Sequence record: MT150133.1
Length of the DNA stretch: 64,000 bases
Direction: 5' to 3' (one strand)
Origin: Enterobacteria phage vB_EcoM_IME540
The position numbers and the translations under genes were made by a program. Position 1 is the stretch's first letter; each line of letters begins with the position of its first letter. Positions 30,599-62,891 of the stretch are shown here, piece by piece. The notes beneath the pieces are model-generated. The model was not told the origin of the DNA. It did no database searches and saw nothing but the letters and a program-made list of their open reading frames with translations.

Positions 30599-30785
30599 TT
30601 ACGAAAATAGCTTTATCACCATTCGCATCAGTGACTTCATAGGTATCTTCATGATACAGTGGGATAATCCAAGTCACACCATCACCGGCAATAATATGGA
30701 TAGCTTCTTGGTCCTTTGATACGATTTCATACTCTTCGAATAATTCGAATACAGAAATCTTAGAGCCCGTACACATTGCACTCAT
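30594..30785 (-). CDS. hypothetical protein (63 aa)
   Basis: Co-directional ORF in gene string. Confidence 0.5.
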   Translation of the reverse strand: MSAMCTGSKISVFELFEEYEIVSKDQEAIHIIAGDGVTWIIPLYHEDTYEVTDANGDKAIFVI

Positions 30786-30981
30786 ATTGTTCCCTTCTTT
30801 TAATCAGTTTACGATGAGCCTTTTTAAGTTTACGAAGCTGGCGTTTAGTTGGTCGCGCAACATAAGCTTGAGTAGTTACTCGTCCAAAAACACCGTACTT
30901 AGGTGAAGGAGAATCGATAAAGACTTCCCACTGACAAGAGTAACTATACACTGCTTTAGAGAATTGGGTTAAGACAAACAT
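30760..30981 (-). CDS. small basic protein, PTKRQ-motif paralog family (copy A)
   Basis: 73 aa; C-terminal motif ARPTKRQLRKLKK shared with ORFs at 31769, 55872 and 62703. Confidence 0.55.
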   Translation of the reverse strand: MFVLTQFSKAVYSYSCQWEVFIDSPSPKYGVFGRVTTQAYVARPTKRQLRKLKKAHRKLIKRREQYECNVYGL

Positions 30982-30982
30982 A

Positions 30983-31423
30983 TTAACCTCGATTCATAAA
31001 AGCATTAAAAATTTGGTCATCAATTGAATAAACCGGGGCTTCCAGAATTTTCAACAGACTATTTTTGATATACTTGCTAGGGATATCCATGTTAATGCCG
31101 TCATTCAATTCATTGTCCGGGAGGATATCTTTAAATTCAAACCCATCAAACTCAACCCTATCAGGAATACCATCAGCGAAAAAATAAACCAATTGGTGCA
31201 TTGCATTGCACGAAAATAATTTAGACTTGACCGCAATAAGTTCTTGCCAATGGTTTAATTCTCTGTTAAGGAGTTTACGAGCAAATATAATTCTATCATC
31301 ACTATCAACAAGAAAATAACCTAGGTATTGGTGGTCGTCGCTCCAATACATCCTGTATGCTTGCGCATTTGGATTTTTACAACGAAGTTTTTTGATAACT
31401 AAATTTCTGTTAATCTTATTCAC
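30983..31423 (-). CDS. hypothetical protein (146 aa)
   Basis: ORF in 61-to-41 intergenic gene set. Confidence 0.65.
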   Translation of the reverse strand: MNKINRNLVIKKLRCKNPNAQAYRMYWSDDHQYLGYFLVDSDDRIIFARKLLNRELNHWQELIAVKSKLFSCNAMHQLVYFFADGIPDRVEFDGFEFKDILPDNELNDGINMDIPSKYIKNSLLKILEAPVYSIDDQIFNAFMNRG

Positions 31424-31709
31424 CTGTCACCTCTTTAACGATATTTTTGTTATCGAAATTGGCATCGCAATACAAAACATAGTTATATTGCATAACACCG
31501 CCTGAAGCTAATTGGTCTGACACTTCTTTAGCCATATCAGGGCGGTCGCGTTTAGTGATGTTCATTATATCAGCATAAATCTGATGTTCGACTGATTCTT
31601 GGTCTGCAGTCATAGACCATTCACAAAGGTCTTTATCCAATCCAGCCGTAACTGGAGCGGTGCCACATGATGCTACTGTAAGGATTGCTGCGATTAATAA
31701 CTTTTTCAT
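31416..31709 (-). CDS. sp: spackle periplasmic protein Sp (superinfection exclusion, lysozyme inhibitor)
   Basis: Track ORF trimmed to ATG MKKLLIAAILTVASC; matches recalled T4 Sp (DKDLCEWSMTADQ, IMNI.KRDRP.M, GGVMQYNYVLYCD.NF.NKNI); 97 aa. Confidence 0.85.
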   Translation of the reverse strand: MKKLLIAAILTVASCGTAPVTAGLDKDLCEWSMTADQESVEHQIYADIMNITKRDRPDMAKEVSDQLASGGVMQYNYVLYCDANFDNKNIVKEVTGE

Positions 31710-31737
31710 TTTTAACTCCTCGTTAGTTGATAGGTCT

Positions 31738-31767
31738 ATAGTATCACTACCATAGACCGTTGTAAAC
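31738..31767 (-). promoter_or_regulatory. early promoter (-35 GTTTAC, 18 nt, TGa-extended -10 TACTAT)
   Basis: Followed by leader AGACCTATCAACTAACGAGGAG; spacer GGTCTAT is complementary to leader ATAGACC. Confidence 0.6.
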
Positions 31768-31768
31768 A

Positions 31769-32008
31769 CTATTTCAACGAATCTTCCAAATAAATTTTAC
31801 GGAATTTACGTTTTGTCTGACGAATCTGACGCTTAGTAGGTTTCACAGGAAAATCGAAGAACTCTACGTATTCTTGTTCATAATCGTTGTGACCGACTGA
31901 AAGAACCAGTTCCCAGTTGCTTACGGTACGTTGGATAAACATGTTATGCTTACCAAAAGATTTATTCCAAAAAGAACTAGGAGTTGGTTTCATTAAGGTA
32001 ATATTCAT
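31769..32008 (-). CDS. small basic protein, PTKRQ-motif paralog family (copy B)
   Basis: 79 aa; motif VKPTKRQIRQTKRKFRK. Confidence 0.6.
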   Translation of the reverse strand: MNITLMKPTPSSFWNKSFGKHNMFIQRTVSNWELVLSVGHNDYEQEYVEFFDFPVKPTKRQIRQTKRKFRKIYLEDSLK

Positions 32009-32149
32009 TTATTCCTCACCTTCATGTTTATGAGCAATTTCTTCGAATTCGCTGTCACAGTCTAAACAGGTTGCGTTATCCCAAGCATCAAATACCGCTT
32101 GGTCTTCATAGACTGAACAACCACATACTACACATTCAAATTCTTCCAT
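32009..32149 (-). CDS. hypothetical zinc-ribbon micro-protein (46 aa)
   Basis: Sub-threshold ORF MEEFECVVCGCSVYEDQAVFDAWDNATCLDCDSEFEEIAHKHEGEE with two CxxC pairs; ATG directly after dmd stop, using SD GAGGAAAT at the dmd 3' end. Confidence 0.4.
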   Translation of the reverse strand: MEEFECVVCGCSVYEDQAVFDAWDNATCLDCDSEFEEIAHKHEGEE

Positions 32150-32344
32150 TTAGATTTCCTCAATGCGAGCATCATGTTCATAAACTTCTACGTCGTCGAC
32201 ATAGGCCTTGACTAGAATACTATTGACTTCAGCGAATTGGGTAGCCACCCACACAATATCGTTTTCACGCACTGAAGCTTCTTTGGTAGCGGTATCACCG
32301 TTGGCGAAATGGCCGACAAATTTTACTTTAATTGATTCAGACAT
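32150..32344 (-). CDS. dmd: Dmd antitoxin (inhibitor of host RnlA/LsoA RNase toxins)
   Basis: 64 aa; matches recalled T4 Dmd (VWVATQFAEVN..LVKA..DD..V versus T4 VQWATTQYAEVNKALVKAFIDDKKV); located between 61 and 41. Confidence 0.8.
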   Translation of the reverse strand: MSESIKVKFVGHFANGDTATKEASVRENDIVWVATQFAEVNSILVKAYVDDVEVYEHDARIEEI

Positions 32345-32662
32345 TTAGATTTCCTCGCAGAAGGCCCATTCAGCATGATAAACCGTAGCGCCTTTAGTAT
32401 CATTTAAACAAACCACATCCACCGGAGCAATTACACGATAAAGACGGGGTTCTCCTCCCACTGAACGAGCTGCACGTCCAGCATAAATCTTAGCCAAACC
32501 GATATCTTCAGTAAAGAACACACGATTTAGGTTTTTCTTACGACCGGTTTCAGACAGAACTCCTGTTTCCTCAGGAGGACAAAGCATATTACCGATATTA
32601 GCGACACTACAACTTCCATGGTAATACACTTTATATTCTGCTTTACAGTCGATGGTTTTCAT
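32345..32662 (-). CDS. hypothetical protein (105 aa)
   Basis: Track ORF begins at TTG; ATG MKTIDCK after SD GGAGAA; contains YYHGS and RLYRV motifs of unknown significance. Confidence 0.6.
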   Translation of the reverse strand: MKTIDCKAEYKVYYHGSCSVANIGNMLCPPEETGVLSETGRKKNLNRVFFTEDIGLAKIYAGRAARSVGGEPRLYRVIAPVDVVCLNDTKGATVYHAEWAFCEEI

Positions 32663-32686
32663 TTTGTTCTCCAAGTTGATAGGTCT

Positions 32687-32715
32687 ATAGTATCACGCCT
32701 ACAGGAGATGTAAAC
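32687..32715 (-). promoter_or_regulatory. early promoter (-35 GTTTAC, TGa-extended -10 TACTAT)
   Basis: Immediately downstream of the gene 41 terminator; leader AGACCTATCAACTTGGAG. Confidence 0.6.
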
Positions 32716-32719
32716 CCTT

Positions 32720-32745
32720 AAAAACAAAAAAGGAGCCGAAGCTCC
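32720..32745 (-). terminator. intrinsic terminator (GGAGC-TTCG-GCTCC plus TTTTTTGTTTTT)
   Basis: Hairpin begins at the gene 41 stop codon and is followed by a long T-run. Confidence 0.65.
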
Positions 32746-34185
32746 TTAAAATTTGATAGATGCTGCTAAATCGTCCAAATCACTTCTATTAACACGCGTC
32801 TGTCGATTGACCTCGGCCTGGCGATTCATCTCACCTGTAGCCTCACGAACAGTGTTCACTGGGCCTGGGTTGGAATCATCTTCAACTTCGTACCAACGTT
32901 GATTTCCTTTCTTAACGCCAATCTTAAATTTGTTGTAGTAGCTCTTATCGCCATAACGAGATTTAAGCTGCTTAACCATCTGCATACCCATCTGAGCGAA
33001 CTCTTCTGTCTCGACCACACCCAACATGAAGTCTGCAGTATGTGCAATACCAAAGGATTCAGCAATATCGGCCATATCGATTTCGGCTGCAACGTTCGCA
33101 CCACGAGTAGTCTGGGCTGCAGTCCACAACAGTAATTTCTTCTCTACTGCAAGTCCACGTAGTTCTTCAGCAACCATCTTAATCAATCCGTAACTGTTTT
33201 CAGAGAAAACTTTCGTACGAGACGATGCACAGATAGCCAAGTAGTCAACGATAACGACCTGTGGGACAAAGTTTTGTTTGAGCTTGTATTCGTTTAATAA
33301 TGCACGGAATGTATCGGCATTAGCACCGCCAGTAGGATACTGTTTAATCTTTAAACGACCCAAGGTAGCAGTTGAACGCCATTTATCCATCTTAGCTTTA
33401 TATTCAGGCCAAGAGACGTGACCATCGTCAATATCGTCTAGTGATACATCCAGAAGGTTGGCATCGATACGCTTAGCACATACTTCCTCTGCCATCTCCA
33501 TGGAGATATAAAGAACATCGTAACCCGATTGAAGATAATCAGCAGCCAATGAACACAGACCCAGAGACTTACCTACGTTTGTTCCTGCCAACAATACGTT
33601 TTCAGTACCAAACTCAGCACCACCCTTGGTAATCTTATTCAGAATATTAAGACGGAATGGAACCTTACGTGCTTTATCAGAATAACTTTTGAATCGTTCT
33701 TCATAGTCATCCATCCAGTCATGACCTAATTCAGAATCGAAACAAATCGATAATGCATCACGCATGATATCTGGAATAGCACCAATACCTGGAAGTTTTC
33801 TATTTTGTTGCTCAACTGGAAGGTCGGCATTAGTTTGGATTTCAATGATTTTTGAAGTTGCATTATACATCGCTGCTTTCTGAACGTATTTCTCCGTCTC
33901 TTTAACCAACCATTCTTGGTCTTCAGGCCCGGAGTTCAGCGAACTTAAAAGCTCTTTAGCGCCTTGATGTTCAACTTCTGAAAGCGTACTGTTATCTAAT
34001 GCAATGCTCAATGCGTTCTTAGAAGGCACTGCATTATATTCATTGACGTGTTTTTTAATTTCTTTGAAAAGGGTCTTTGCAGGACCCTGGTCAAAATAAG
34101 AATCATTCATATAAGGCCAGACCTTAGTGAAATAATCACTATTGCCTAGCAGTTGAGCCAAAATAGTTTCTACCACTTCCACCAC
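32746..34185 (-). CDS. 41: replicative DNA helicase gp41 (DnaB-like)
   Basis: 479 aa; matches recalled T4 gp41 over long stretches (WLVKETEKYVQ, NATSKIIEIQTNA, KARKVPF.L.ILNKITKGGAE.GT, NVGKSLGLCSLAADYLQ, YISMEMAEEVCAKRIDAN). Confidence 0.97.
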   Translation of the reverse strand: MVEVVETILAQLLGNSDYFTKVWPYMNDSYFDQGPAKTLFKEIKKHVNEYNAVPSKNALSIALDNSTLSEVEHQGAKELLSSLNSGPEDQEWLVKETEKYVQKAAMYNATSKIIEIQTNADLPVEQQNRKLPGIGAIPDIMRDALSICFDSELGHDWMDDYEERFKSYSDKARKVPFRLNILNKITKGGAEFGTENVLLAGTNVGKSLGLCSLAADYLQSGYDVLYISMEMAEEVCAKRIDANLLDVSLDDIDDGHVSWPEYKAKMDKWRSTATLGRLKIKQYPTGGANADTFRALLNEYKLKQNFVPQVVIVDYLAICASSRTKVFSENSYGLIKMVAEELRGLAVEKKLLLWTAAQTTRGANVAAEIDMADIAESFGIAHTADFMLGVVETEEFAQMGMQMVKQLKSRYGDKSYYNKFKIGVKKGNQRWYEVEDDSNPGPVNTVREATGEMNRQAEVNRQTRVNRSDLDDLAASIKF

Positions 34186-34499
34186 CTCTTAGATTTAATT
34201 TTATCCAGTTCTTCTTGTATTTGCATTGTAACACATTTTTCTACATGAAGCGCTAGCTCTTCTTTTCGGTCTTCGGAAGGTGTTCCGAAATCAACCGACA
34301 CTTTTCCATCTTTCTCAATAACAATATTCATCACATAAACGATGTGAGCAGTGCCATCGGGTAAAGTAAGCATAATTTCCTGCTTAACCGATCCCATTGA
34401 CTTACGGATTATATCTAATGATTTCTCATAATAACGAGGGTCACTAGGACCCTCTTCGGTATCTTTAACGAAATTATCTAAATCAGATAAATCAGTCAT
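34170..34499 (-). CDS. 40: hypothetical protein in the gene 40 position
   Basis: 109 aa between uvsX and 41, the T4 uvsX-40-41 arrangement; sequence identity to T4 gp40 not verified. Confidence 0.55.
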   Translation of the reverse strand: MTDLSDLDNFVKDTEEGPSDPRYYEKSLDIIRKSMGSVKQEIMLTLPDGTAHIVYVMNIVIEKDGKVSVDFGTPSEDRKEELALHVEKCVTMQIQEELDKIKSKRWWKW

Positions 34500-35664
34500 C
34501 TAAATCCATCTCTTCCAAATCGTTTTCGATATCAGCGGCGCTTTGGGCATTACCACCTAATTTAACAGCAACGTTCTTAGAGACACGAGAGTTAATAAGG
34601 TCGTTCACTGCATCGTCAACTTCTTTAATAGAATTAATTGCACCGAGCTTATACTTATTCTCGATTGCTTCACGGAACGGGGCATGTTTAAACAGCGGTC
34701 CCCAGAACTCGACACAATCGGTAGCTTTAGCACGCCATGCTTTTTCTTCTTGAACCATTTCGCCTGTGGTTTCGTCAAGGAATGCACGATTATACCAGCC
34801 AGCTTTAGGTTTCACGACAAAGCCAATATCAGTAGCCATTTCAAGCAATCCACTGAATGGGTCGATACCACCTTCGAAGTTAACGGTGATAGGGAACGTT
34901 GATTTCTCTTTAACCGTACGAGATTTCTCAGCCTTCAGTGTGAAGTCATAACCAGTGAGCTCGGTACCATCTTTAACCTGACGTTTAGAGATAAAGAACA
35001 CGGTAGAAGCAGAGTACAGAATACCAGTACCACCACCCATAATCTCTTTAGGATACATTCCACCAATTTCCATAGCCGTGTGGTTGATTGCTACACAAGG
35101 GATATCTTTGATAGTCAGATAAGGTGTTACGATACGGAACAGAGATTTCAGTGACTTAGCACGGGTCATATCACCTACAACTTTCTCGTTCAAAGCATCT
35201 TCGGTTTCTTTCTTAGAAGCAGTGTTACCAATGGAGTCGATAAAGATAATAACCTTTTCGCCACGAGTAATTTCTTCTAACTGGTTGGTCATATCAACTT
35301 TAAGCTGTTCGACTGACTGGATTGGTGTATGAACCACACGTTCCAAATCAACACCCATCGAACGGAAATAAGATTCTGAAGCACCAAACTCAGAGTCATA
35401 GAACAAACAAATTGCGTCTGGATATTTCTTCATATATGCCGCAACCATGGTAAGTCCAAACAACGTTTTAAAGTGTTTAGATGGAGCAGCAAAGATTGTC
35501 AAACCTGATTGTAAGCCTGCATTCAACGCACCGCCTAATGCAATATTCAGCATAGGGATACGAGTAGGAACTTCGTCACGACCATTAAACAATTTAGATT
35601 TGGTCAGGTCGGCGGTCATTTTAGAAGTAGAAGCTTTAATCAAACGGGATTTTAAATCAGACAT
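34492..35664 (-). CDS. uvsX: UvsX recombinase (RecA-like)
   Basis: 390 aa; near-identical N-terminus to recalled T4 UvsX (MSDLKSRLIKASTSK), Walker A region, NEKVV.DMTRAK..KSLFRIVTPY. Confidence 0.97.
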   Translation of the reverse strand: MSDLKSRLIKASTSKMTADLTKSKLFNGRDEVPTRIPMLNIALGGALNAGLQSGLTIFAAPSKHFKTLFGLTMVAAYMKKYPDAICLFYDSEFGASESYFRSMGVDLERVVHTPIQSVEQLKVDMTNQLEEITRGEKVIIFIDSIGNTASKKETEDALNEKVVGDMTRAKSLKSLFRIVTPYLTIKDIPCVAINHTAMEIGGMYPKEIMGGGTGILYSASTVFFISKRQVKDGTELTGYDFTLKAEKSRTVKEKSTFPITVNFEGGIDPFSGLLEMATDIGFVVKPKAGWYNRAFLDETTGEMVQEEKAWRAKATDCVEFWGPLFKHAPFREAIENKYKLGAINSIKEVDDAVNDLINSRVSKNVAVKLGGNAQSAADIENDLEEMDLDD

Positions 35665-35741
35665 TATATTTTTCCATAGGCATCATTATATTTTACTCAC
35701 GTTTTAAGATAGGGTAATTATATCACTTCACATTTACAGCG

Positions 35742-36635
35742 TTAAAGGACCACGTCCTCATAACTTGGCATTTCGTGCTCAGAATGGATGTGGGCACCGA
35801 AATAAATGAATTCAGCCAGACCAGGATGGAATACTAAACTGGGATTCTCATGATAAATGATATGAGGTCTTGATTTCAGAATCTGATAATATTCAACCTT
35901 ACTCGGTTTGAATTTAATAATCTCTACATCAGGACGATGGTCTTCACGCTTAAATGAATCATTCGGATCGGTGATATAAAGGCGAGAACCTTCAGCCGCA
36001 GCTTGGTCTACAACTCTTTCGAATTGATAGCATTTATCTGAGATACGGAATGGATGGAAAATACCATCAATTTTAATAGGCGCTAGACCTTCAGAGTAAC
36101 GCTCAATTACTGCGGGATTAATTACCTTTTGGTCTACAAAAATCTTATCAGAGGACGCACCTCGTGACACCAGGACGTCTTTCTGACATTGATTCAAGAC
36201 TGTAGTATAAATCGAACGTTCAACTGAGGACACGTCGGTATCAATAAACTCGTCGATATAATAACGAGGAACTTCAGGGTCCATTGTAATGTTAAAGTTG
36301 AATTGTACAGTCTGAGTGCCATCATAACCTGTGATATCGGTTACCAATCCTGAGCAGTCATAGTATTCGATTAACGAATCAACAACGAACTCGTTTTCAG
36401 ACCAAAAATGTTTACGAGTTTCATAAGCATTTTCTTTATACCAAAGCGGTACAAAATTCAGTTCAGGAAATAATTCAATGCATTCTTTGATATCGCTCGA
36501 ATTTCTAGGATAAGCCAGATAATCACCTGGGCAAGCACGGTTTAAATGGAGTTGAAAATTACCGTCCTTAAGGACGGCATATTCACCTGTTTCGTAACTA
36601 CGCATACTGAAAATAGGAACGATAAACAAACTCAT
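35742..36635 (-). CDS. hypothetical protein in the beta-glucosyltransferase slot; candidate DNA-sugar transferase
   Basis: 297 aa between uvsX and 42 where T4 has bgt; no similarity to recalled T4 beta-GT; ATG overlaps gp42 stop (ATGA); function inferred from context only. Confidence 0.4.
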   Translation of the reverse strand: MSLFIVPIFSMRSYETGEYAVLKDGNFQLHLNRACPGDYLAYPRNSSDIKECIELFPELNFVPLWYKENAYETRKHFWSENEFVVDSLIEYYDCSGLVTDITGYDGTQTVQFNFNITMDPEVPRYYIDEFIDTDVSSVERSIYTTVLNQCQKDVLVSRGASSDKIFVDQKVINPAVIERYSEGLAPIKIDGIFHPFRISDKCYQFERVVDQAAAEGSRLYITDPNDSFKREDHRPDVEIIKFKPSKVEYYQILKSRPHIIYHENPSLVFHPGLAEFIYFGAHIHSEHEMPSYEDVVL

Positions 36636-37330
36636 TTCAGGAATCCTCGAACGTAGTCAAAATCACGTTCAAATACGTGTGCACTAACCATAGTATGGGA
36701 ATACGTACCCAGACCAACACCACACTGTTCAGCAATAAAGGCCATCAGTTTACCCTGCAGATAGAAATCCAGCTGCATAACAATAGCACAGTTCTGTGAA
36801 CGCATATGGGTATGTGCATAAAGACGTCCATCACGAATATAATATGTCACTGAATCAGTACATGGATATTCTAAGGATTCGTCAGAATCAAGGAGGGCTT
36901 GGTCTTGTTCTTGGAGAATTTGGAACACAACTCGTCTTGAGTTAGGCTTCTCTTTAAGCTCTTTAAGTAAGGCTGGGAGTTGGGCCACAATTCTAGGTCC
37001 ATAGAAAGTGTTGAAGTTTGCAGGCAATACGTCACTTTTCGGCTTATCAATGAACTTAGCAACATTAGGGTATTCCTTAAATGCTTCGGCGGCGTCAGTA
37101 CCACCAGAAATCATAAACTTCCAGAAAGATTCGGCATAATCATAGTTGATACGATTAATACGAGGGTCGGTGAATTTATAGGTGCTTGCATCCAGTACTT
37201 CTACCGAAGCAGAACCAATTTCATAACAACAGCCGATACGAGAATCAACTGCAAACTGTGGAGCTTCCAGGATTTCTTCGTTCATTTGCTTAAACGCGTT
37301 TTCAAAACTAACAGCGGTAATGTGTTTCAT
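36632..37330 (-). CDS. 42: dCMP hydroxymethylase gp42 (thymidylate-synthase fold)
   Basis: 232 aa; TS-family core PCTDSVTYYIRDGRLYAHTHMRSQNCAIVMQLDF parallels T4 gp42 MCTNTVQYLIRDKKINAVVNMRSNDVVFGFRND; SD AAGGTGA. Confidence 0.8.
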   Translation of the reverse strand: MKHITAVSFENAFKQMNEEILEAPQFAVDSRIGCCYEIGSASVEVLDASTYKFTDPRINRINYDYAESFWKFMISGGTDAAEAFKEYPNVAKFIDKPKSDVLPANFNTFYGPRIVAQLPALLKELKEKPNSRRVVFQILQEQDQALLDSDESLEYPCTDSVTYYIRDGRLYAHTHMRSQNCAIVMQLDFYLQGKLMAFIAEQCGVGLGTYSHTMVSAHVFERDFDYVRGFLK

Positions 37331-55841: not shown

Positions 55842-55873
55842 ACCCTTACCATTATTAGATAAGGGTATTTATT
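55842..55873 (-). promoter_or_regulatory. gene 49 leader: late-promoter-like AATAAATA abutting a hairpin that contains the SD
   Basis: Minus strand AATAAATA then ACCCTTA-(11 nt)-TAAGGGT; the 3' arm includes the SD; resembles the T4 gene 49 early-versus-late translational control. Confidence 0.4.
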
Positions 55874-56057
55874 ATTTTTCAAATGTACTATAAAACGAGC
55901 GATGCAACCGTTTAAATTGTCGAAGCATCTTTTTAGTAGGACGGGTGTATAATCCTACACAGGTGGCCATAAACTGGTCGGTAGGACTTCCTTTAATAAG
56001 AAGTTTCCAGACCTTACCACCGTTTAACTTTTCGGTATAAATCAATTCAGTTTTCAT
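55872..56057 (-). CDS. small basic protein, PTKRQ-motif paralog family (copy C)
   Basis: Track ORF begins at TTG; ATG MKTELIY; motif TRPTKKMLRQFKRLHR. Confidence 0.55.
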   Translation of the reverse strand: MKTELIYTEKLNGGKVWKLLIKGSPTDQFMATCVGLYTRPTKKMLRQFKRLHRSFYSTFEK

Positions 56058-56103
56058 AGTAAAACCCAAACTCCATATCAATTAAATCATTGTTTGAAGG
56101 TTC

Positions 56104-56133
56104 ATTATACTCTATTTCGGAATCGTTGTAAAC
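56104..56133 (-). promoter_or_regulatory. early promoter (-35 GTTTAC, 18 nt, -10 TATAAT)
   Basis: Consensus hexamers upstream of paralog copy C. Confidence 0.6.
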
Positions 56134-56179
56134 AGGTTCCTCTGGCTCGACAGTTTCCCATCGAGCGGTATACCATGGC

Positions 56180-56488
56180 TTAACGGTCACACCACCAACT
56201 ACTTACTTCAAAATCAGGTTCACCGTGTTCCCAGTACCAAGGGCCGACTGGATGCCAATCACCGTGTTCATCTTCTTCAAATTCTTCAGATTCAAGCCCA
56301 ACGTATTGCCATTGGACTTCATAAGCAGTACCACCGATTACAACGGTGTTCTCGCCATATGGATGGGCTACAACAAAGTCAATACCTTCTGCTTTGGCTA
56401 ACCAAACCATATATTCGTATAGTTTATATTCCAGGTCATCTTCGGTGCCATCACCTAGAAAAATGGTTTGTTCGTTTAATTCAATCAT
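56180..56488 (-). CDS. hypothetical acidic protein (102 aa)
   Basis: ATGA overlap with upstream ORF; Trp- and acid-rich. Confidence 0.55.
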   Translation of the reverse strand: MIELNEQTIFLGDGTEDDLEYKLYEYMVWLAKAEGIDFVVAHPYGENTVVIGGTAYEVQWQYVGLESEEFEEDEHGDWHPVGPWYWEHGEPDFEVSSWWCDR

Positions 56489-56673
56489 AACTCCACCATA
56501 AATTCAAATAGCTGGCCATGTACACAGGTATCAGTCCAACCCCATTCGTTGGCTTCTTCTTTTAACCAATCCGGGAGATTTGCCAATACGGTTTCTTTAC
56601 TAGGCGCAGGAGTATTAAACTCACTTGCAAACTCTCTTGCGCAGGTTTCATAAGCTGTATCAAATTCGGTCAT
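56485..56673 (-). CDS. hypothetical protein (62 aa)
   Basis: ATG overlaps stop of upstream micro-ORF (ATGA). Confidence 0.55.
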   Translation of the reverse strand: MTEFDTAYETCAREFASEFNTPAPSKETVLANLPDWLKEEANEWGWTDTCVHGQLFEFMVEL

Positions 56674-56831
56674 TTAAAGTTCCAGAATGAAGCACCAACC
56701 AGAAATAAAGGCCAACAAATCATAGACGTCAGCCACCAACAAAAATCACCGGAATCATCTAATTTAGCTAGGGTCTTAGCATAACCAATACCGATGATAA
56801 GATACAAAACAACCAACATTAATTCAATCAT
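56670..56831 (-). CDS. small membrane peptide (53 aa), translationally coupled to nrdC
   Basis: ATG overlaps nrdC TGA stop; MIELMLVVLYLIIGIGYAKTLAKLDDSGDFCWWLTSMICWPLFLVGASFWNFK with two hydrophobic segments; sub-threshold ORF. Confidence 0.45.
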   Translation of the reverse strand: MIELMLVVLYLIIGIGYAKTLAKLDDSGDFCWWLTSMICWPLFLVGASFWNFK

Positions 56832-57091
56832 TTGAAATAAGCTCGCAGTCGGTCAAAGCCACCAATAGAAGTTCCGTCCGGAGCAAATACCTGAGGCATA
56901 GTCAAACCTACCTGAGATTCGCGACCAAGAGCAGTCAAGAGTTCAGCAATCTTCTCATCATCAAATACACCTTTTTCCGGCATCACGTTAATGAATTCGT
57001 AAGGTTGTTTCTTAACATCAAGCAGACGTTTGGCATTATCACAGAAAACACAACGGTGGATATTTGAATCGTAACCATAAACTTTAAACAT
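56828..57091 (-). CDS. nrdC: glutaredoxin NrdC (T4 thioredoxin)
   Basis: 87 aa; near-identical to recalled T4 NrdC (MFKVYGYDSNIH.CV.CDNAKRLL.VKKQP.EFIN.MPEKGVFDDEKIAELLT.LGR, GLTMPQVFAPDG); CxxC = CVFC. Confidence 0.88.
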   Translation of the reverse strand: MFKVYGYDSNIHRCVFCDNAKRLLDVKKQPYEFINVMPEKGVFDDEKIAELLTALGRESQVGLTMPQVFAPDGTSIGGFDRLRAYFK

Positions 57092-57092
57092 T

Positions 57093-57332
57093 TTAAATTC
57101 CTAATATTTGTTTGAATGCTTCAGAACGGTCGAGTTCTGTTCCATATTTTTCCATGTGCTCATATTTTAAATTATACACATCAGATAGTATATTATTATA
57201 CGAGCGAGTTAAAGCAGATTTTAAAACTGAATAACTGTCTGGGAATTTACCATGCTCTTTATAATAAGCTAGGGTAAGTTCGCGGACCGCCTTATCGGCC
57301 GCCTCTACATATTCTTTGCGCTTTGCCATTTT
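57093..57332 (-). CDS. hypothetical protein (80 aa)
   Basis: Track ORF trimmed to ATG MAKRKEY; still overlaps the upstream ORF by about 40 nt, so one of the two boundaries is uncertain. Confidence 0.45.
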
Positions 57333-57627
57333 CGTCTCGCTCAAATCGGTGTTTACAATGACGGCATTTGTAACGAAGATTACTAGTCTGCCAATGGACC
57401 AATTGGACCTGTTCTGTACCGCACTCAGGACAGTTAGGAACATCCTTAGAAGCTTGTTCTCGTCGTGCGACCATAGCCATTACAGCATCCCAATTAACGG
57501 CATCACCATAATCATCACAACCATGAATTTTACCAACCAATTCAACTTCAACATCCTCGGCTTTAATAAATTTCAATAAACCAGTATTAGATGCTGAAGC
57601 AATATCTTCAGCTAAACGTTGTTTCAT
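57292..57627 (-). CDS. hypothetical zinc-ribbon protein (111 aa)
   Basis: C-terminal CPECG ... CRHC cysteine pairs; ATG overlaps upstream stop (ATGA). Confidence 0.5.
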
Positions 57628-58634
57628 TTCAGCAGCTCCAGAGCCTGTTCAAGACGGTCTAAACGATTGGTAGACTCTTCCCAAAGTTTCTTGGCGGCGG
57701 TATATTGGCCAGTCAGTTTTTTGTTGATAGCAAGGGCGTCTTTATACGCTTTTTCCAAGGCAACGACTTCCGGTAACTTGGATTTAGTAATTGGTGTAGG
57801 GGCCATGATAGGGCTGTTCAAGTCGTTAATCAAGTCTTCTAATGTAGCAGGCTCTTTATCAGTGTTCACAATTTCCTCACATTTTTCTTTGTAAATTTCA
57901 GCATCAGTTTTTGGAACGGTACATTTGATTTCACGGACTGTTACTAAGACCTCATATCCTTTCCAGCCTAAGTGGTGTTTAACTTCTTGGGTCTCATATT
58001 TCTCTACGGTATCCATCAGAGCTAAAGCTTGTTCGATAGTATTCAAGGTATCGTAAGCAATATCTTGATACTTTACAACTTCCGCATCATCTTTAGGTTT
58101 CCTATTAGGTGACCAAATAACAGAAATAATAGCTTTTCCTTTATAACTATTTGTTTTAATCATGCAATTAGCCATCGGGTGAATAGTACGACAATCACCG
58201 GAAACTATAGTTTTAGAGGCCGCTTTGAGAATTAATGCAGAGTTAGCCTTGAATTCGCTAACCCAACGTTGCGGAAATAAACTATTAGGGTCCATACCTT
58301 TAATTTTGATATAACCTTTTATGGTATCACCAAACCATTTGTAGCTAACAACACGGTTGGAACCTGGATATTTCTCTTTACCGAACTCAGAAAGGATGTC
58401 CTTATTGACCAGGCGCGAAAGCAGTCGAGAACCTTTAAATGTTTTAATGATATCATGAATGCACAAACGGCCTGCAATCTTTTCGATTTCAGCTTTGAAA
58501 CAGCGCGATAATGCATCATCAATTTGGTCGACCCATTTATTGATATTAGAAACTATTACCTCGTATGGGGTTAACGGAGGGGTGTTGGTAGTGATATACG
58601 TAGTAAAGGCATTGATGTATTCAGTACGAGTCAT
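57624..58634 (-). CDS. hypothetical protein (336 aa)
   Basis: Track ORF start lies in the promoter -10; ATG MTRTEYINAF follows SD GAGGAG; no motif recognised. Confidence 0.7.
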   Translation of the reverse strand: MTRTEYINAFTTYITTNTPPLTPYEVIVSNINKWVDQIDDALSRCFKAEIEKIAGRLCIHDIIKTFKGSRLLSRLVNKDILSEFGKEKYPGSNRVVSYKWFGDTIKGYIKIKGMDPNSLFPQRWVSEFKANSALILKAASKTIVSGDCRTIHPMANCMIKTNSYKGKAIISVIWSPNRKPKDDAEVVKYQDIAYDTLNTIEQALALMDTVEKYETQEVKHHLGWKGYEVLVTVREIKCTVPKTDAEIYKEKCEEIVNTDKEPATLEDLINDLNSPIMAPTPITKSKLPEVVALEKAYKDALAINKKLTGQYTAAKKLWEESTNRLDRLEQALELLK

Positions 58635-58661
58635 GATATTCTCCTCAGTAGATTTAAAAAG

Positions 58662-58691
58662 ATTATACTCCATCCGTCCTTGGATGTAAAC
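58662..58691 (-). promoter_or_regulatory. early promoter (-35 GTTTAC, 18 nt, -10 TATAAT)
   Basis: Consensus hexamers; leader CTTTTTAAATCTACTGAGGAG. Confidence 0.6.
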
Positions 58692-58692
58692 A

Positions 58693-59574
58693 TTATTTTA
58701 GAGCTAATACTGCCGCGCTAAGCTTGTCACGCTGGATTTCCATGTTCTTGATGCGAATCAATACGTCTTGAATACTCTTTTTCTCATCTTCGATCTGGCC
58801 GTTTAAACGGTGGATTGATTCCTGGAGGTGGTCCTCATGATACTTCTCGATAGGTTTCATCGTAGGGTTAGTAACAACCAAAGAATTATCAGGTTTAATT
58901 TTCCAATGATACGGTTCAGAATTGAATGGACTCGGTACAGCCGTGGTTTTGAATCTGTCATAGGCTGCATACTGGCCTACGCTGTCACATGATACTGCAG
59001 AGATACGTCGTTCCATTTCCGGTTCCTTTTGTTGGGATTGATAAGGGGCATAAGACAAAAGATATTCACGAGTTAGTTTAACATTAAAATACACTGCATC
59101 GGGCCGTCCGGAACAATCAGCATATTCATCTGTTGTAACCTTATATGATTCTACAGCCTTAATACGGGTCATTGCTTCCCTGAATAAGGTTTCAAATGCT
59201 TCACGAAGGGCCTTATTACCTTTTGAGGTAGGACGGAAACGAACTTGAATGCCGTCATTCAGAATATTAATGACTAGGTTACGAGCCGTAAAATTAATAT
59301 TCTTGATATTGACAGGAACCGTAGAAATACGTCCCGCGGTAGCCAAGAGGTCTTTGATATTAGCTCGCAATGTTACACCAAACAGGTGGGCTGGGCCACG
59401 GCAATAATCGTTCAAAGAACTAATATAAGTCCCTTTACGACCTACACCATAAGTATAATTACCATTACAAATATGGCCGAAGTCGGCCAGCCGATCGATA
59501 GCGATACGCTTGGTTACACCAAAATCATATCGGGAATATTCTTTACGTGTTTTAATGTTCATATTAAAGTCCAA
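58693..59574 (-). CDS. hypothetical protein (293 aa)
   Basis: Co-directional ORF with C-terminal coiled-coil-like region. Confidence 0.7.
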   Translation of the reverse strand: MDFNMNIKTRKEYSRYDFGVTKRIAIDRLADFGHICNGNYTYGVGRKGTYISSLNDYCRGPAHLFGVTLRANIKDLLATAGRISTVPVNIKNINFTARNLVINILNDGIQVRFRPTSKGNKALREAFETLFREAMTRIKAVESYKVTTDEYADCSGRPDAVYFNVKLTREYLLSYAPYQSQQKEPEMERRISAVSCDSVGQYAAYDRFKTTAVPSPFNSEPYHWKIKPDNSLVVTNPTMKPIEKYHEDHLQESIHRLNGQIEDEKKSIQDVLIRIKNMEIQRDKLSAAVLALK

Positions 59575-59779
59575 ATAATTTTTTATAGAATTTAGCCATA
59601 GGCCACACTATAGCCAGAACAATACCTGTAACCCAGAATATAGGCCAGGCGAGAGTAGTGAACACTGCATCATACTCATCACCTTTTTCAAAACAGCTGT
59701 CAAATTTGTGGATTAATACAGTAGTAATGAATCCTATCACAAGGTATCCAAAAATAGAACCAATAATTAAAGTAGCCAT
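59564..59779 (-). CDS. hypothetical membrane protein (71 aa)
   Basis: Two hydrophobic segments (LIIGSIFGYLVIGFITTVLI, AWPIFWVTGIVLAIVW). Confidence 0.6.
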   Translation of the reverse strand: MATLIIGSIFGYLVIGFITTVLIHKFDSCFEKGDEYDAVFTTLAWPIFWVTGIVLAIVWPMAKFYKKLFGL

Positions 59780-59780
59780 A

Positions 59781-60620
59781 TTAATCCTTAAGAAGATTTA
59801 GGATATCGATATATTTCTGGCGTTCAGCCTTGGCTTTAGCATTCAAACCAGAGAGTCGGAAAATCTCATCATCTTGTTGCTGAATTGTAACATTCAAGCA
59901 AGTAAGCAAATTGCTAAAATACTCGATTTGAGCTTGATGCTTCTCATTGCTGCGCACTGGTACAGGTTCCGGTTTAGGAGCTTCTGAATGACTCTTAACT
60001 TCATTACCTGGCTTAACAAGTTTAATACGCCAGCCTGTACTGGTATTAACATTATCGAAGGTAAGAATACCGCTACGTTCGAGTTCAGACAAAGCCAATC
60101 GAAGATGGAATTTCCAGTTGTCATATTGACAACCACTAAAAGTTGAAGTAAGATACTCGTTTTCGTTACCTGGTTGGTTGACAATATTAAAGATAATCCA
60201 ATCGCCTGAACCATTAGTCTTAAATGGCATTTGCTTATCTTTACCTAAAGCTAGACGAGCACCCAGTGCTAGTAAACGTCGTTGGTTAGTACGAAGGTCT
60301 TTAACAACTTCATCAAATGACATCGCCGGGATTAAACGACCATAGAGGTCATAGCCTTTGTTATAATTTCTAAGAATAATTCTGGCGTTAGCACGAGTCA
60401 ACATACCGGCCCTGTGAAGAGATTTCATGACTCGGTCTTCTAACGTAAACATCCTAGTCTTGTCAAAGATTTTAGTGAATTCATCTACAGAAATACAAAC
60501 TTCAAACTTTTCCCACATCATGGCCAAAACCTTTTCAACCACTTCTTTAGAACTCGGAATACGTCCGAATTTAACAACTTTTTTAACTTCAGAACGAATT
60601 TGATTAATTGCCTGTGACAT
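59781..60620 (-). CDS. hypothetical protein (279 aa)
   Basis: Co-directional ORF; no motif recognised. Confidence 0.7.
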   Translation of the reverse strand: MSQAINQIRSEVKKVVKFGRIPSSKEVVEKVLAMMWEKFEVCISVDEFTKIFDKTRMFTLEDRVMKSLHRAGMLTRANARIILRNYNKGYDLYGRLIPAMSFDEVVKDLRTNQRRLLALGARLALGKDKQMPFKTNGSGDWIIFNIVNQPGNENEYLTSTFSGCQYDNWKFHLRLALSELERSGILTFDNVNTSTGWRIKLVKPGNEVKSHSEAPKPEPVPVRSNEKHQAQIEYFSNLLTCLNVTIQQQDDEIFRLSGLNAKAKAERQKYIDILNLLKD

Positions 60621-60683
60621 AATAATTTCCTCAGTAAGTAATTAAGAACCTAGAACCATTATACCATCCTTGGTATAAAGCGT

Positions 60684-61208
60684 TTATGCGAGAACCGTCT
60701 TTAAACGCTCTTCAAATTTCTGAAGCAGAGCTTGGCGTTCAGCTCGTTGTGATTTGTACTGCTCGATACGACCTGAAGTGAGGGCGTACTGTTCGTTTAC
60801 TGATTCCCGCATGAATTCAGGAATCTCTTTACAAGCTTTGATTTCGTCAAACTTATCAATAACAGCTTGTTGTTCAGCAATCAGATTATCGAAATAAGCG
60901 ATATCAGATTTAACGTTTGCCAGGTCGGATTCGGTAGGCATTAAACGTTTGTTACGTTCAGCTTGATAAGCTTGATTGGTTTCACGGCTCCAGTGAAGAG
61001 TACGTTTTTTGTTGGTGTTTTTATAGAGCTCTACAATACCAACTGAATCGATGATAACAATCCAGTTCCAACGGCTTTTGTAAATCTCTCCTCCAGATAC
61101 AGTAATCTCATTACCACAAGCAACGTCGTTAAAGAACTTGCTTTGTTTTTCAGATTTGAAATTACCGTTGTTGAAATTAATCAGTGAAAAAATATCTTTA
61201 GCGTTCAT
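60684..61208 (-). CDS. hypothetical protein (174 aa)
   Basis: ATG after SD GGAGG in conserved leader. Confidence 0.7.
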   Translation of the reverse strand: MNAKDIFSLINFNNGNFKSEKQSKFFNDVACGNEITVSGGEIYKSRWNWIVIIDSVGIVELYKNTNKKRTLHWSRETNQAYQAERNKRLMPTESDLANVKSDIAYFDNLIAEQQAVIDKFDEIKACKEIPEFMRESVNEQYALTSGRIEQYKSQRAERQALLQKFEERLKTVLA

Positions 61209-61234
61209 GATAACCTCCAGTAGTTGATATGTCT

Positions 61235-61263
61235 ATAGTATCATTTCTACTGGAGATGTAAAC
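61235..61263 (-). promoter_or_regulatory. early promoter (-35 GTTTAC, TGa-extended -10 TACTAT)
   Basis: Spacer CTCCAGTAG is complementary to leader CTACTGGAG, which contains the SD. Confidence 0.6.
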
Positions 61264-61265
61264 AA

Positions 61266-61607
61266 CTAATAGAAACTTTTTTCACCTGCTTGTCCACTAA
61301 ACCACGCTGATTGGGTCACAGTTTTCCTTTGTTGAGCGATACGCTCTTGATAATCACTACGAATGGCGCGCTGCTTATCTCTGAAGTCGCCTGCCAACTT
61401 TACCTGCTTGCGGTCTAGATTTATTAAGGCCTGGGTCTTCGCGGCCAAGAGCAATCTCCTGTAGTCTCCTTCTTCGGATTCAGTTTTATAAACTCTATTA
61501 GTATATCCGTCGACAACTTCTTTATCATAGTCCTCGACGGACTGTTTCATGGCATCACGATGGGCCAAACCTGCGTTATAAAGATTGTAAATAAATTGTT
61601 CGAACAT
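61266..61607 (-). CDS. hypothetical protein (113 aa)
   Basis: Co-directional ORF. Confidence 0.65.
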   Translation of the reverse strand: MFEQFIYNLYNAGLAHRDAMKQSVEDYDKEVVDGYTNRVYKTESEEGDYRRLLLAAKTQALINLDRKQVKLAGDFRDKQRAIRSDYQERIAQQRKTVTQSAWFSGQAGEKSFY

Positions 61608-61616
61608 AATTTATCC

Positions 61617-62597
61617 TTATTTCAGAAGTGTAACTTCAGAGATTTCACCCCAGTCATTTTTATCGGTGGCAATGAAATCCGCCAGATAAAGAGCTGTACG
61701 TAATGATACGTTACGAAGACGAGATACATTAGCCTTCATCCATGCTAAAGCTTGGTAAGTCTCGGCGTCAGTCAGACCACGGTTTTGCATCATATCAGTG
61801 GACAGGATAACGTCTTCAACACGAACCATAATCTCTTCGTTCGAGTGAACTCCGAGGTCTAAGTAAACTGAACGCGATACTAAAGCCTGGAGGTGTGGAG
61901 CAAGTTTAGTTCCACGCTCTAATTCACGGTCGATATCAACGTTGGTGATGAACACGATGGTGCCTTCGTATTCGAATTCTTTATCGATGTTTTTATCATC
62001 GAGATAAGAACTTGAAGTGCTCCAGCACACCTTACGTTTTTCACCGGTATCCAATGCCGCTTTCAGAAGGTTCAGGATATCCATATCAGAGAATACATCA
62101 ACATCATCGATAAGAAGAACACTATTAGGGCCGCGGTTATTCCAAAGCTGCTCGTAAAGACCGATTCCACTAATCTTTCCGTTGATTGATTTATATTCGA
62201 TAGTTTCATTTTCGTGGGCATTCTGTAATGCTTTATCCAAAGAATACGTTTTACCAATACCTGCGGCACCAGAGATGATAAGGGAACGAATTTTACCATC
62301 GATGATTCCGTTGGTCATCATGTTCATTACTTTAAAACGTTTGTTGATGCGATGTTTCATTTCTTCAGCGGATTCAGTAACAACTGCAGGAGCTTCAGCA
62401 CCTTCGGTTTCGATATCACATTTGAACACCCATACACCACGTTCAACACCATCAATCTGTACGAATACCTTGCCATCACCGAGGTGAGCTTCGGATTCAT
62501 GAATTTTATTAGGGAACCAGGTTTTACCTGAACTCATGAACGTACCAGAGATTACATTACCGCGATAGATACCTTTGTTGATTTTGATAGTTAACAT
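61617..62597 (-). CDS. AAA+ family ATPase (327 aa)
   Basis: Walker A GAAGIGKT and Walker B LLIDDVD; track ORF extends upstream through the promoter, true start ATG MLTIKINKG after SD GGAGAA. Confidence 0.7.
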   Translation of the reverse strand: MLTIKINKGIYRGNVISGTFMSSGKTWFPNKIHESEAHLGDGKVFVQIDGVERGVWVFKCDIETEGAEAPAVVTESAEEMKHRINKRFKVMNMMTNGIIDGKIRSLIISGAAGIGKTYSLDKALQNAHENETIEYKSINGKISGIGLYEQLWNNRGPNSVLLIDDVDVFSDMDILNLLKAALDTGEKRKVCWSTSSSYLDDKNIDKEFEYEGTIVFITNVDIDRELERGTKLAPHLQALVSRSVYLDLGVHSNEEIMVRVEDVILSTDMMQNRGLTDAETYQALAWMKANVSRLRNVSLRTALYLADFIATDKNDWGEISEVTLLK

Positions 62598-62634
62598 TAT
62601 ATTCTCCATTTCACTCAGTAGATTTGATAGGTCC

Positions 62635-62663
62635 ATAATAACATGCTCTACGAGAGTGTAAAC
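62635..62663 (-). promoter_or_regulatory. early promoter (-35 GTTTAC, 17 nt, -10 TATTAT)
   Basis: Directly downstream of terminator at 62683; leader GGACCTATCAAATCTACTGAG. Confidence 0.6.
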
Positions 62664-62682
62664 TCTTTTTTGCACTAAACCC

Positions 62683-62703
62683 AAAAAGGAACCCGAAGGT
62701 TCC
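62683..62703 (-). terminator. intrinsic terminator (GGAACC-TTCG-GGTTCC plus TTTTT)
   Basis: Same hairpin sequence as at 878 and 28237; starts in the stop codon of the upstream gene. Confidence 0.65.
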
Positions 62704-62891
62704 TAAATTGCATTCCAATAATTATGGAAGCGGATATTATTAATGGCCCACTCAACAAATCGTCTTATCTGTTTAGGCGTTGGTTTACATACGTACTTGA
62801 TATTGCCGCGGCGTCCAGTTTCTTTACATACTGCTTCAAGATACCATCGGCGAGTTTTATGAGGCCTTCCATATGATAAAAAGACCTTCAT
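62703..62891 (-). CDS. small basic protein, PTKRQ-motif paralog family (copy D)
   Basis: Track ORF begins at TTG; ATG MKVFLSYGRPHK; motif CKPTPKQIRRF. Confidence 0.55.
   Translation of the reverse strand: MKVFLSYGRPHKTRRWYLEAVCKETGRRGNIKYVCKPTPKQIRRFVEWAINNIRFHNYWNAI

Follow-up and report, generated by a model that had tools for sequence, protein, structure and literature searches.

Four diverged members of the TifA family encoded in the genome of Enterobacteria phage vB_EcoM_IME540

Four small basic proteins with a common motif

Scattered over a 64,000-nucleotide stretch of the genome of Enterobacteria phage vB_EcoM_IME540 (record MT150133.1; the whole stretch is referred to below as the window) are four small genes on the minus strand whose products appear to share a basic C-terminal motif. 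Are these genes related to one another, do they belong to a family that is already known, and what might a single phage gain from four of them?

All four ORFs translate as described in the sequence-only reading of this DNA: ORF1 (30760..30981) to 73 residues, ORF2 (31769..32008) to 79, ORF3 (55872..56057) to 61 and ORF4 (62703..62891 as first delimited) to 62. They occupy three different variable regions, as was claimed: ORF1 and ORF2 share the 61-41 interval, ORF3 adjoins gene 49 and ORF4 lies between nrdC.10 and nrdC.11. Their pI values lie between 9.9 and 10.6. Of the 1253 six-frame ORFs of the window (72,167 aa), only these four contain the core motif PT[KP][KR]x[LI]R, once each: ORF1 (PTKRQLR), ORF2 (PTKRQIR), ORF3 (PTKKMLR) and ORF4 (PTPKQIR). 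The longer pattern proposed earlier, (R/K)PT(K/P)(K/R)Q(L/I)R(R/K/Q)..K(R/K), is thus sound in its core and slightly over-strict as written: Met replaces Gln in ORF3, the trailing K(R/K) is missing from ORF4, and one residue, not two, precedes K(R/K).

Membership in the TifA family

The sequence-only reading was unaware of any named T4 protein that bears this signature. There is one: T4 gp61.4, which was renamed TifA in 2022 and inhibits ToxN, a type III toxin and endoribonuclease (PMC9391042). TifA scores 72.7 bits on the Pfam profile PF23945 (DUF7279). In the same profile search ORF1 to ORF4 scored 69.8, 69.7, 56.6 and 41.6 bits (E 1.9e-19, 2e-19, 2.5e-15 and 1.2e-10), and all four exceeded the curated gathering score of 24.5 bits. 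ORF1 and ORF3 are assigned to phrog_3272, ORF2 to phrog_2375 and ORF4 to phrog_8921.

The likeness was also assessed by comparing pairwise Smith-Waterman scores with those of 2000 composition-preserving shuffles. The pairs ORF1-2, ORF1-3 and ORF2-3 are clearly related (z = 7.1, 8.2 and 6.4), and to this extent the shared motif survived the shuffle control. The pairs that include ORF4 are weak (z = 4.2 with ORF1, 2.2 with ORF2, 2.6 with ORF3), so that the membership of ORF4 is convincing at the profile level only. The N-terminal halves alone showed no pairwise significance among the four, which indicates that the similarity is carried by the helix with its Pro-Thr (PT) cap and basic residues. 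Identity among the copies is only about 20-25%. A fifth member was found neither in the window, where the next best match had an E value of 0.26, nor in a complete genome from the Dhakavirus lineage to which this phage belongs. Across the four genes dN/dS ranges from 0.03 to 0.21, the mark of purifying selection, and hundreds of phage genomes contain conserved orthologues. Judged by these comparisons the four ORFs are true if diverged members of a family already known, that of TifA (T4 gene 61.4, DUF7279), and the paralogy first claimed for them is genuine.

Copy number distinguishes this arrangement from that in T4. The whole T4 genome contains one family gene whereas a complete Dhakavirus genome contains four, and all four types are on record in Gaprivervirus. 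The gene order around each paralog type is preserved from genus to genus. ORF1, ORF3 and ORF4 are old duplicates, and each has a conserved slot to itself.

The two genes of the 61-41 interval

Gene order and sequence match identify ORF2 as the positional orthologue of T4 tifA. It alone occupies the gene 41-sp position in the dmd-containing early operon; ORF1, ORF3 and ORF4 lie elsewhere. The best match of T4 TifA in the window is ORF2 (score 127), followed by ORF1 (112), and ORF2 matches phrog_2375, the PHROG of T4 and RB69 TifA, with an E value of 6e-35 (T4 TifA itself: 2e-38). ORF2 is identical to T4 TifA at 33 of 67 positions, its orthologues in IME08 and JS98 are annotated gp61.4, and its dN/dS is 0.03-0.08. 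Upstream, separated from it by one 46-aa ORF, lies dmd (32150..32344, minus strand; Pfam PF17587 E 1.3e-15), which encodes an inhibitor of the RnlA/LsoA toxins and is annotated in relatives. A consensus scan placed a promoter-like site, TTTACA-16-TACTAT with TG, at 32687..32714 on the minus strand, just past the gene 41 terminator; it is a candidate for the early promoter of the dmd-ORF2 operon. In T4, dmd-tifA is reportedly driven by an early promoter (PMC9391042).

ORF1 follows sp and a 146-aa gene at the AdfA position, and together with ORF2 it lies within the 'anti-TA island' formed by dmd and the gene at the AdfA position. It retains the FGRV loop of T4 TifA, ends in a short tail (...ECNVYGL), is preceded at 6 nt by the Shine-Dalgarno sequence GAGG and has a dN/dS of 0.03-0.10.

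Dmd (T4 gp61.5) resembles the four proteins in being a small early phage product directed against host RNase toxins (RnlA, LsoA), and its gene shares the operon and island of ORF2. It belongs, however, to an unrelated family: PF17587 matched none of ORF1-4, and Dmd is regarded in the TifA papers as a direct protein antitoxin that does not require RNA.

ORF3 beside gene 49 and ORF4 beside nrdC.11

ORF3, a minimal family member adjoining gene 49, matches phrog_3272 with an E value of 7e-34, has orthologues in 357 phage records and a dN/dS of 0.08-0.12. Consensus scans revealed a promoter-like site (TTTACA-17-TATAAT, 11/12 matches) at 56104..56132, 47 nt upstream of the start codon, and a terminator-like hairpin with a T-run at 55842..55866, immediately 3' of the stop codon, both on the minus strand. 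ORF3 apparently forms a stand-alone promoter-gene-terminator cassette.

ORF4 is the most divergent copy. It was rightly recognized as a gene, and only its start needs revision: translation most likely begins at a TTG at 62927 and yields 74 residues (62703..62927), as compared with 62 from the ATG at 62891. The TTG, which four phages share, follows a GAGG Shine-Dalgarno sequence at a distance of 6 nt, the internal Met is Ile in one homologue, and the 74-residue product spans positions 1-74 of the 74 positions of PHROG 8921 (E 3e-38). The gene has a dN/dS of 0.09-0.21 and overlaps by 29 nt the 3' end of the nrdC.11 homologue (62899..63939, minus strand), an RlaP-type nucleotidyltransferase of the kind found in RNA-repair pathways (Pfam PF10127 RlaP, E 3e-12). 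It directly follows nrdC.11 here and in ABTNLS3, VR26 and TU02, in three genera in all. IME08 lacks ORF4 through a clean indel of about 193 nt. A terminator-like hairpin at 62687..62704 (minus strand), recognized by consensus match, overlaps the ORF4 stop codon and is kept in IME08 despite the absence of the gene.

Predicted fold and conservation

AlphaFold2 predicted for both ORF3 and ORF4 a three-stranded sheet followed by a C-terminal helix that begins just after the PT cap: strands at residues 2-9, 15-22 and 31-36 and a helix at 42-59 in ORF3 (pLDDT 88.6), and strands at 2-7, 16-21 and 28-33 and a helix at 39-54 in ORF4 (pLDDT 82.9). The predicted fold matches the architecture published for TifA, for which there is no solved structure to compare; no significant fold match was found.

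In TifA of T4 and RB69, binding of RNA by the basic helix has been shown experimentally. RNA binding and function depend on the Pro-Thr cap and on basic residues of the C-terminal helix, K55, R56 and R59; the protein contacts RNA by P53, T54, K55, R56 and R59 and keeps ToxN trapped on the RNA (PMC10853763). Its specificity, which varies between homologues, maps to a loop residue at position 41. ORF1 to ORF3 keep equivalents of all five RNA-binding residues; ORF4 keeps the Pro, the Thr, a basic residue at position 56 and R59, with Pro at position 55. The loop around position 41 differs in each of the four copies. In a non-redundant family alignment of 36 sequences the W, P, T and R hardly vary, and information content amounts to 2.5-4.3 bits in the helix columns, as against 0.6-1.5 bits in most sheet and loop columns.

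The idea that the basic tail binds nucleic acid is therefore in agreement with the experiments on TifA, the founding member. Judging from the homologous T4 and RB69 TifA, the helix that ORF1-3 have conserved very probably binds RNA. For ORF4 this is doubtful: its helix contains 4 K/R in 20 residues compared with 6-11 in ORF1-3, and its positive charge is located in the sheet instead. With most of the basic stripe gone, any RNA-binding mode of ORF4 may differ.

TifA (T4 gp61.4; T2, T6, RB69) thus resembles the four proteins in its PF23945 match, small size and early-region location, in the invariant Trp of strand 2, the PT cap and basic helix and in the predicted sheet-plus-helix fold; with ORF2 it further shares phrog_2375 and a position near dmd. 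ORF1, ORF3 and ORF4 differ from it in genomic slot and PHROG and in the absence of its long beta1-beta2 insertion, the beta2-beta3 loop is different in each copy, and the helix of ORF4 is only weakly basic.

What the four proteins may do

Orthologues of ORF1 and ORF2 are already in the literature as tifA homologues, where they have been listed and tested. The panel of Guegler 2023 comprised 'TifA homologues' of EcS1, VR7, PM2, vB_PatP_CB4, vB_EcoM_005 and JS98, all with the PT-basic motif of ORF1-4. The vB_EcoM_005 protein is the ORF1 orthologue (71/73 residues identical) and the JS98 protein the ORF2 orthologue (76/79); the ORF3 and ORF4 types are not represented. The ORF1 and ORF2 types neutralized none of six ToxN homologues, nor TenpN, and expression of the ORF1-type protein was verified. 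These genes should hence not be annotated as ToxN inhibitors, and an anti-toxin role is unproven for this lineage. Neither TifA paper uses the word 'paralog', and the homologues are presented there as belonging to separate phages, whereas here they coexist in one genome; JS98 has both the ORF1 and ORF2 types and vB_EcoM_005 has three types.

The putative specificity faces are almost wholly different and the ORF1 and ORF2 types are inactive against the ToxN and TenpN toxins of the panel, which suggests that the copies have been tuned to separate effectors. We propose, as on balance the probable explanation, that ORF1-4 are expressed TifA-family paralogs that combine an RNA-binding helix with divergent docking faces. 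In these small early proteins a beta-sheet of three strands would be followed by a basic C-terminal helix with a Pro-Thr cap. The helix would bind RNA, docking onto a specific host protein would fall to the sheet and the beta2-beta3 loop, both poorly conserved, and the target would be held inactive in a ribonucleoprotein complex. Each copy would address a different RNA-associated host defence effector, for example an RNase toxin. It is conceivable, if rather doubtful, that the TifA fold serves as a modular platform for 'RNA-tethered inhibitors', in which a single conserved RNA-binding helix is paired with interchangeable docking faces, and that four versions of it counter four RNA-targeting immune effectors, none of them the ToxN or TenpN of the panel, with ORF4 and the adjacent RlaP-type nucleotidyltransferase acting together.

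The strongest competitor, which we nevertheless consider unlikely, is that the four are general small RNA-binding proteins serving host takeover, mRNA stability, translation or RNA repair and have no specific defence target. RNA binding by TifA shows little apparent dependence on sequence, and 16S rRNA co-purifies with the protein (PMC10853763), ORF4 is tightly coupled to an RNA-repair nucleotidyltransferase, and the negative assays of the ORF1 and ORF2 types fit such a role. However, the patchy presence of the genes (T4 lacks three types, IME08 lacks ORF4) is what one expects of accessory counter-defence genes and not of core RNA metabolism, known anti-toxin genes are neighbours of ORF1 and ORF2, and the only characterized member works via a specific protein-protein interface.

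Four redundant ToxN inhibitors that raise the dosage of TifA are improbable. Dosage does matter, in that T4 overcomes plasmid-borne toxIN by amplifying dmd-tifA (PMC9391042), and the PT-basic helix required for ToxN inhibition is common to all four copies. Yet copies of such low identity, with N-terminal halves that cannot be aligned, are unlike recent amplifications; each resides in an old syntenic slot and has its own specificity loop, and no ToxN or TenpN tested was neutralized by the ORF1 and ORF2 types. That the four act on DNA and not on RNA, perhaps as small modulators of transcription or of the nucleoid, is more improbable still: in vitro TifA binds short ssDNA and dsDNA with an affinity similar to that for RNA (PMC10853763), and the high pI of all four would suit such a role, but the nucleic acid that co-purifies with TifA is sensitive to RNase and insensitive to DNase (PMC10853763), and ORF1-4 matched no DNA-binding family. 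A chance or compositional resemblance of unrelated basic ORFs, some of them not genes, to which the low ORF4 scores and the non-significant N-terminal halves might point, is ruled out by the matches to an independent Pfam model, the restriction of the motif to these four ORFs, the common predicted fold of ORF3 and ORF4, the dN/dS values and the conserved orthologues.

Significance

The family itself was already known, and its presence in four copies in one genome provides a modest, testable lead. Public annotations of these genes, among them 'nucleotidyltransferase' and 'DNA polymerase', are misleading and are corrected by the present result. TifA has so far been the story of one target, ToxN; the non-neutralizing 'homologues' prove here to be co-resident, anciently diverged paralogs. 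Should each of them prove to neutralize an RNA-directed defence of its own, this compact family would offer a supply of new anti-defence specificities, and it could also help to explain differences in host range among therapeutic T4-like phages.

Four members of the TifA family

The four small genes proposed as a family by the sequence-only reading all lie on the minus strand: ORF1 (30760..30981), ORF2 (31769..32008), ORF3 (55872..56057) and ORF4 (62703..62927, or from 62891 in its ATG-start form). Translation gives 73, 79, 61 and 62 residues, respectively, as claimed, and all four products are strongly basic (pI 9.9-10.6). The phage is of the JS98/IME08 type, T4-like and assigned to the genus Dhakavirus; three of the four products match proteins of phage vB_EcoM_IME540 without a difference. 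A scan of 1253 six-frame ORFs from the window finds the pattern PT[KP][KR]x[LI]R four times, once in each of ORF1-4. The core of the motif described earlier thus stands, but its literal form, W...PTKRQ(L/I)R followed by basic residues, was slightly too strict: ORF3 has Met for Gln, the final basic pair is absent from ORF4, and the spacer consists of one residue, not two.

The curated Pfam profile PF23945 (DUF7279), which is independent of the four ORFs, matches each of them above its gathering score (E 1.9e-19, 2e-19, 2.5e-15 and 1.2e-10 for ORF1 to ORF4), and PHROG profiles cross-match among the four copies. When pairwise Smith-Waterman scores were compared with those of 2000 composition-preserving shuffles, the mutual pairs of ORF1-3 reached z = 6.4-8.2 and pairs containing ORF4 only z = 2.2-4.2. 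With the helix removed, the N-terminal halves lost pairwise significance among the four in the shuffle test; those of ORF1 and ORF2 scored z = 7.7 and 10.4, respectively, against T4 gp61.4. Together with the independent Pfam matches, the similarity exceeds chance. That the resemblance is fortuitous, or that the ORFs are not real genes, is refuted by the Pfam E-values, the confinement of the motif to these four of 1253 ORFs, the predicted fold common to ORF3 and ORF4, the presence of orthologues in hundreds of phage genomes and dN/dS values of 0.03-0.21 across ORF1-4 in comparisons with orthologues. For ORF3, dN/dS between the window and vB_SalD_ABTNLS3, a phage with a closely related complete genome, is 0.08. 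A search of all six-frame ORFs of the window with a four-sequence HMM and with a 47-sequence family HMM yielded no fifth member (next best E 0.25 and 0.26).

Contrary to the sequence-only reading, a named T4 protein does have this signature. T4 gp61.4 scores 72.7 bits against DUF7279, which identifies DUF7279 as the TifA family, and ORF1-4 therefore belong to a known and named family. In IME08 and JS98, ORF2 is annotated as gp61.4, and it lies in a dmd-containing operon. Since 2022, T4 gene 61.4 has been called tifA; its product is an inhibitor of ToxN, a type III toxin, and amplification of dmd-tifA lets T4 escape from toxIN (PMC9391042). The predicted fold of TifA is a three-stranded sheet packed on a basic C-terminal helix. 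RNA binding, co-precipitation of ToxN and neutralisation all depend on the conserved Pro-Thr cap (P53, T54) and on three basic residues, K55, R56 and R59, and TifA apparently traps ToxN on abundant RNA such as 16S rRNA (PMC10853763). Specificity depends on residue 41, in a loop of low conservation within the predicted interface (PMC10853763). The motif picked out by the sequence-only reading is this experimentally mapped functional element, and that reading had good grounds for proposing nucleic-acid binding. Nothing was retrieved from the literature under 'DUF7279', and later work on TifA yielded no paper on paralogs or new targets.

Copy number and genomic slots

Copies were counted by applying the 47-sequence HMM to six-frame translations. 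The complete T4 genome contains a single member, gp61.4; the window contains four, and the complete ABTNLS3 genome exactly four at matching positions, which bears out the paralogy. T4 gp49.1, the expected counterpart of ORF3, was rejected because gp61.4 is the sole member in the whole T4 genome. Among the PHROG families, phrog_2375 comprises ORF2 and the TifA proteins of T4 and RB69, phrog_3272 comprises ORF1 and ORF3, and phrog_8921 contains ORF4.

The copies occupy their own slots. By tblastn, 357 phage records, many of them Tequatrovirus, have an ORF3-type gene next to gene 49 and pin. ORF4-type genes occur in 211 records by the same method; in Dhakavirus, Gaprivervirus (VR26) and Klebsiella Jiaodavirus (TU02) they come immediately after the nrdC.11 homologue. 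In another T4-like lineage, represented by MN882610.1 and metagenome contigs, the ORF1 slot 3' of sp is the sole one occupied in a 12-kb stretch around genes 41-61; it comes after sp and a 126-aa gene, and no dmd or tifA-slot copy was called within that stretch. The occupant (6001..6279) is a 92-aa member with a long C-terminal tail. ORF4 is missing from IME08 through a clean indel of ~193 nt that retains the terminator hairpin. The indel places window positions 62687..62891 against 9146..9168 of IME08. Its junction coincides with a brief AAGG/AGG similarity, as would fit either microhomology-mediated deletion or the insertion of a gene cassette. Judged from the separate slots across lineages and the patchy presence, the copies behave like accessory genes that arose by old duplications. 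An exhaustive HMMER search of 1.84 billion representatives produced 36 clusters (50% identity) at E <= 1e-3, and the TifA family is therefore small; a word-indexed protein search retrieved only 15 close relatives.

Expression signals and neighbouring genes

Good Shine-Dalgarno sequences precede ORF1 and ORF2. At 47 nt 5' of the ORF3 start codon there is a promoter-like site that agrees with the consensus at 11 of 12 positions, and terminator-like hairpins are found directly 3' of the ORF3 stop and at the end of ORF4. The most likely start of ORF4 is the TTG at 62927, which would yield 74 residues and a 29-nt overlap with the end of nrdC.11. A GAGG is situated 6 nt 5' of this TTG, the TTG is kept in four phages, the internal Met is replaced by Ile in one homologue, and the 74-aa form spans PHROG 8921 end to end. 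The segment 62899..62927 thus places the TTG inside the 3' end of nrdC.11, with the GAGG conserved. ORF4 is tightly coupled to nrdC.11, which encodes an RlaP-type RNA-repair nucleotidyltransferase, and the position of the TTG 29 nt inside that gene together with the conserved GAGG suggests that the coupling is translational.

On the other side of ORF4, the nrdC.10 homologue (61617..62684, minus strand) has sub-threshold matches to AAA/STAND-type NTPases and a C-terminal HTH_37, a domain combination unusual for a phage early gene adjoining an RNA-repair-type nucleotidyltransferase.

ORF1 and ORF2 lie among anti-toxin genes, namely dmd and a 146-aa ORF (30983..31423, minus strand) at the position of T4 61.2, which encodes the anti-DarT factor AdfA. 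The match of this ORF is sub-threshold (E 0.006) and confined to the final 15 residues of the profile for AdfA, so that it may be a diverged AdfA or an unrelated occupant of the slot. A 46-aa ORF (32009..32149, minus strand) separates dmd from ORF2; in T4, dmd adjoins tifA directly. The 46-aa ORF has no Pfam match and is a 'hypothetical protein' in ABTNLS3. A promoter-like TTTACA-17-TACTAT with a TG (31738..31769, minus strand) sits in the opening codons of the longest ORF for sp, which has a GTG start. Since the Spackle Pfam match begins only at residue 21 of that ORF and JS98 is annotated with a shorter sp, the true sp start is probably downstream, and the promoter-like sequence is a candidate for transcribing sp together with the 146-aa gene and ORF1.

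In several GenBank records, orthologues of ORF1 carry the name 'nucleotidyltransferase' and those of ORF2 'DNA polymerase', and nrdC-region genes of ABTNLS3 are labelled 'thioredoxin'; all three look like annotation-transfer errors.

Fold and divergence of the copies

AlphaFold2 models of ORF3, the smallest copy (pLDDT 88.6), and ORF4, the most divergent (82.9), share one architecture: three beta-strands followed by a helix that starts just past the Pro-Thr. In the non-redundant family alignment, the strand-2 Trp and, within the motif, Thr and Arg show no variation, and the Pro is 97% conserved; helix columns carry 2.5-4.3 bits, compared with 0.6-1.5 bits for most sheet and loop columns. Relative to T4 TifA, ORF1 keeps the FGRV loop, including position 41, whereas ORF2 differs in the loop but retains the long beta1-beta2 insertion. 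ORF3 represents the fold in minimal form. In ORF4 the loop is short and the helix weakly basic, with 4 K/R in 20 residues versus 6-11 in the other copies, and the positive charge is shifted to the sheet.

Many distant family members end in a conserved tail, E.ENSWEGIHCD(I/V)xGL. ORF1 ends in ...EQYECNVYGL and T4 TifA in ...VTCDYAEILK; the tail is missing from ORF2, ORF3 and RB69-type TifA. Its pattern suggests a second, optional module in which a Cys is conserved.

No solved relative emerged when PDB sequences were searched with a profile, which gave only a chance-level match to eL18 (E 0.14). With Foldseek, nothing was obtained at E <= 0.001 for the ORF4 model against the PDB, where matches to the Hsp70 substrate-binding domain had an rmsd of ~10-11 A, or for the ORF3 model against BFVD. 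The best BFVD matches to ORF3 are all uncharacterised small proteins from T4-like phages, one example coming from Citrobacter phage Merlin (TM 0.77/0.86), and are probably further relatives. NCBIfam has no model for any of ORF1-4.

Function of the paralogs

Near-identical orthologues of two of the four copies have already been assayed. The 'tifA vB_EcoM_005' of Guegler et al. (Table S2) is identical to ORF1 at 71 of 73 residues, and JS98 gp61.4, listed there as 'tifA JS98', is identical to ORF2 at 76 of 79. TifA homologues of these other E. coli phages failed to neutralise TenpN or any of six ToxN homologues; the strain list includes a FLAG-tagged vB_EcoM_005 construct, and an immunoblot check of expression was reported for two homologues (Guegler et al., PMC10853763). 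JS98 carries both the ORF1 and ORF2 types, and vB_EcoM_005 the ORF1, ORF2 and ORF3 types; the two assayed 'homologues' are therefore co-resident paralogs. The word 'paralog' is absent from both TifA papers (PMC9391042, PMC10853763), and co-residence is not pointed out there. In view of the negative ToxN results, none of ORF1-4 should be annotated as a ToxN inhibitor.

The best-supported model combines a shared RNA-binding module, the C-terminal helix common to all paralogs, with docking faces that differ between them; we infer RNA binding by ORF1-4, a role against host defence and distinct targets. A general function in RNA metabolism is possible, in particular for ORF4. That four copies merely raise the dosage of one activity is unlikely, given their identity of only ~20-25%, the old synteny of each copy and the negative ToxN/TenpN assays. 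A DNA-directed role, to which the binding of DNA by TifA in vitro (PMC10853763) might point, is also unlikely.

The initial observation of the family is confirmed and its interpretation was partly right. The TifA family was already known; modestly new are the four-paralog set per genome, its conserved slots and the divergent, putative specificity faces. Under the model given above, the paralogs would each keep a separate RNA-associated host effector in an inactive state on RNA.
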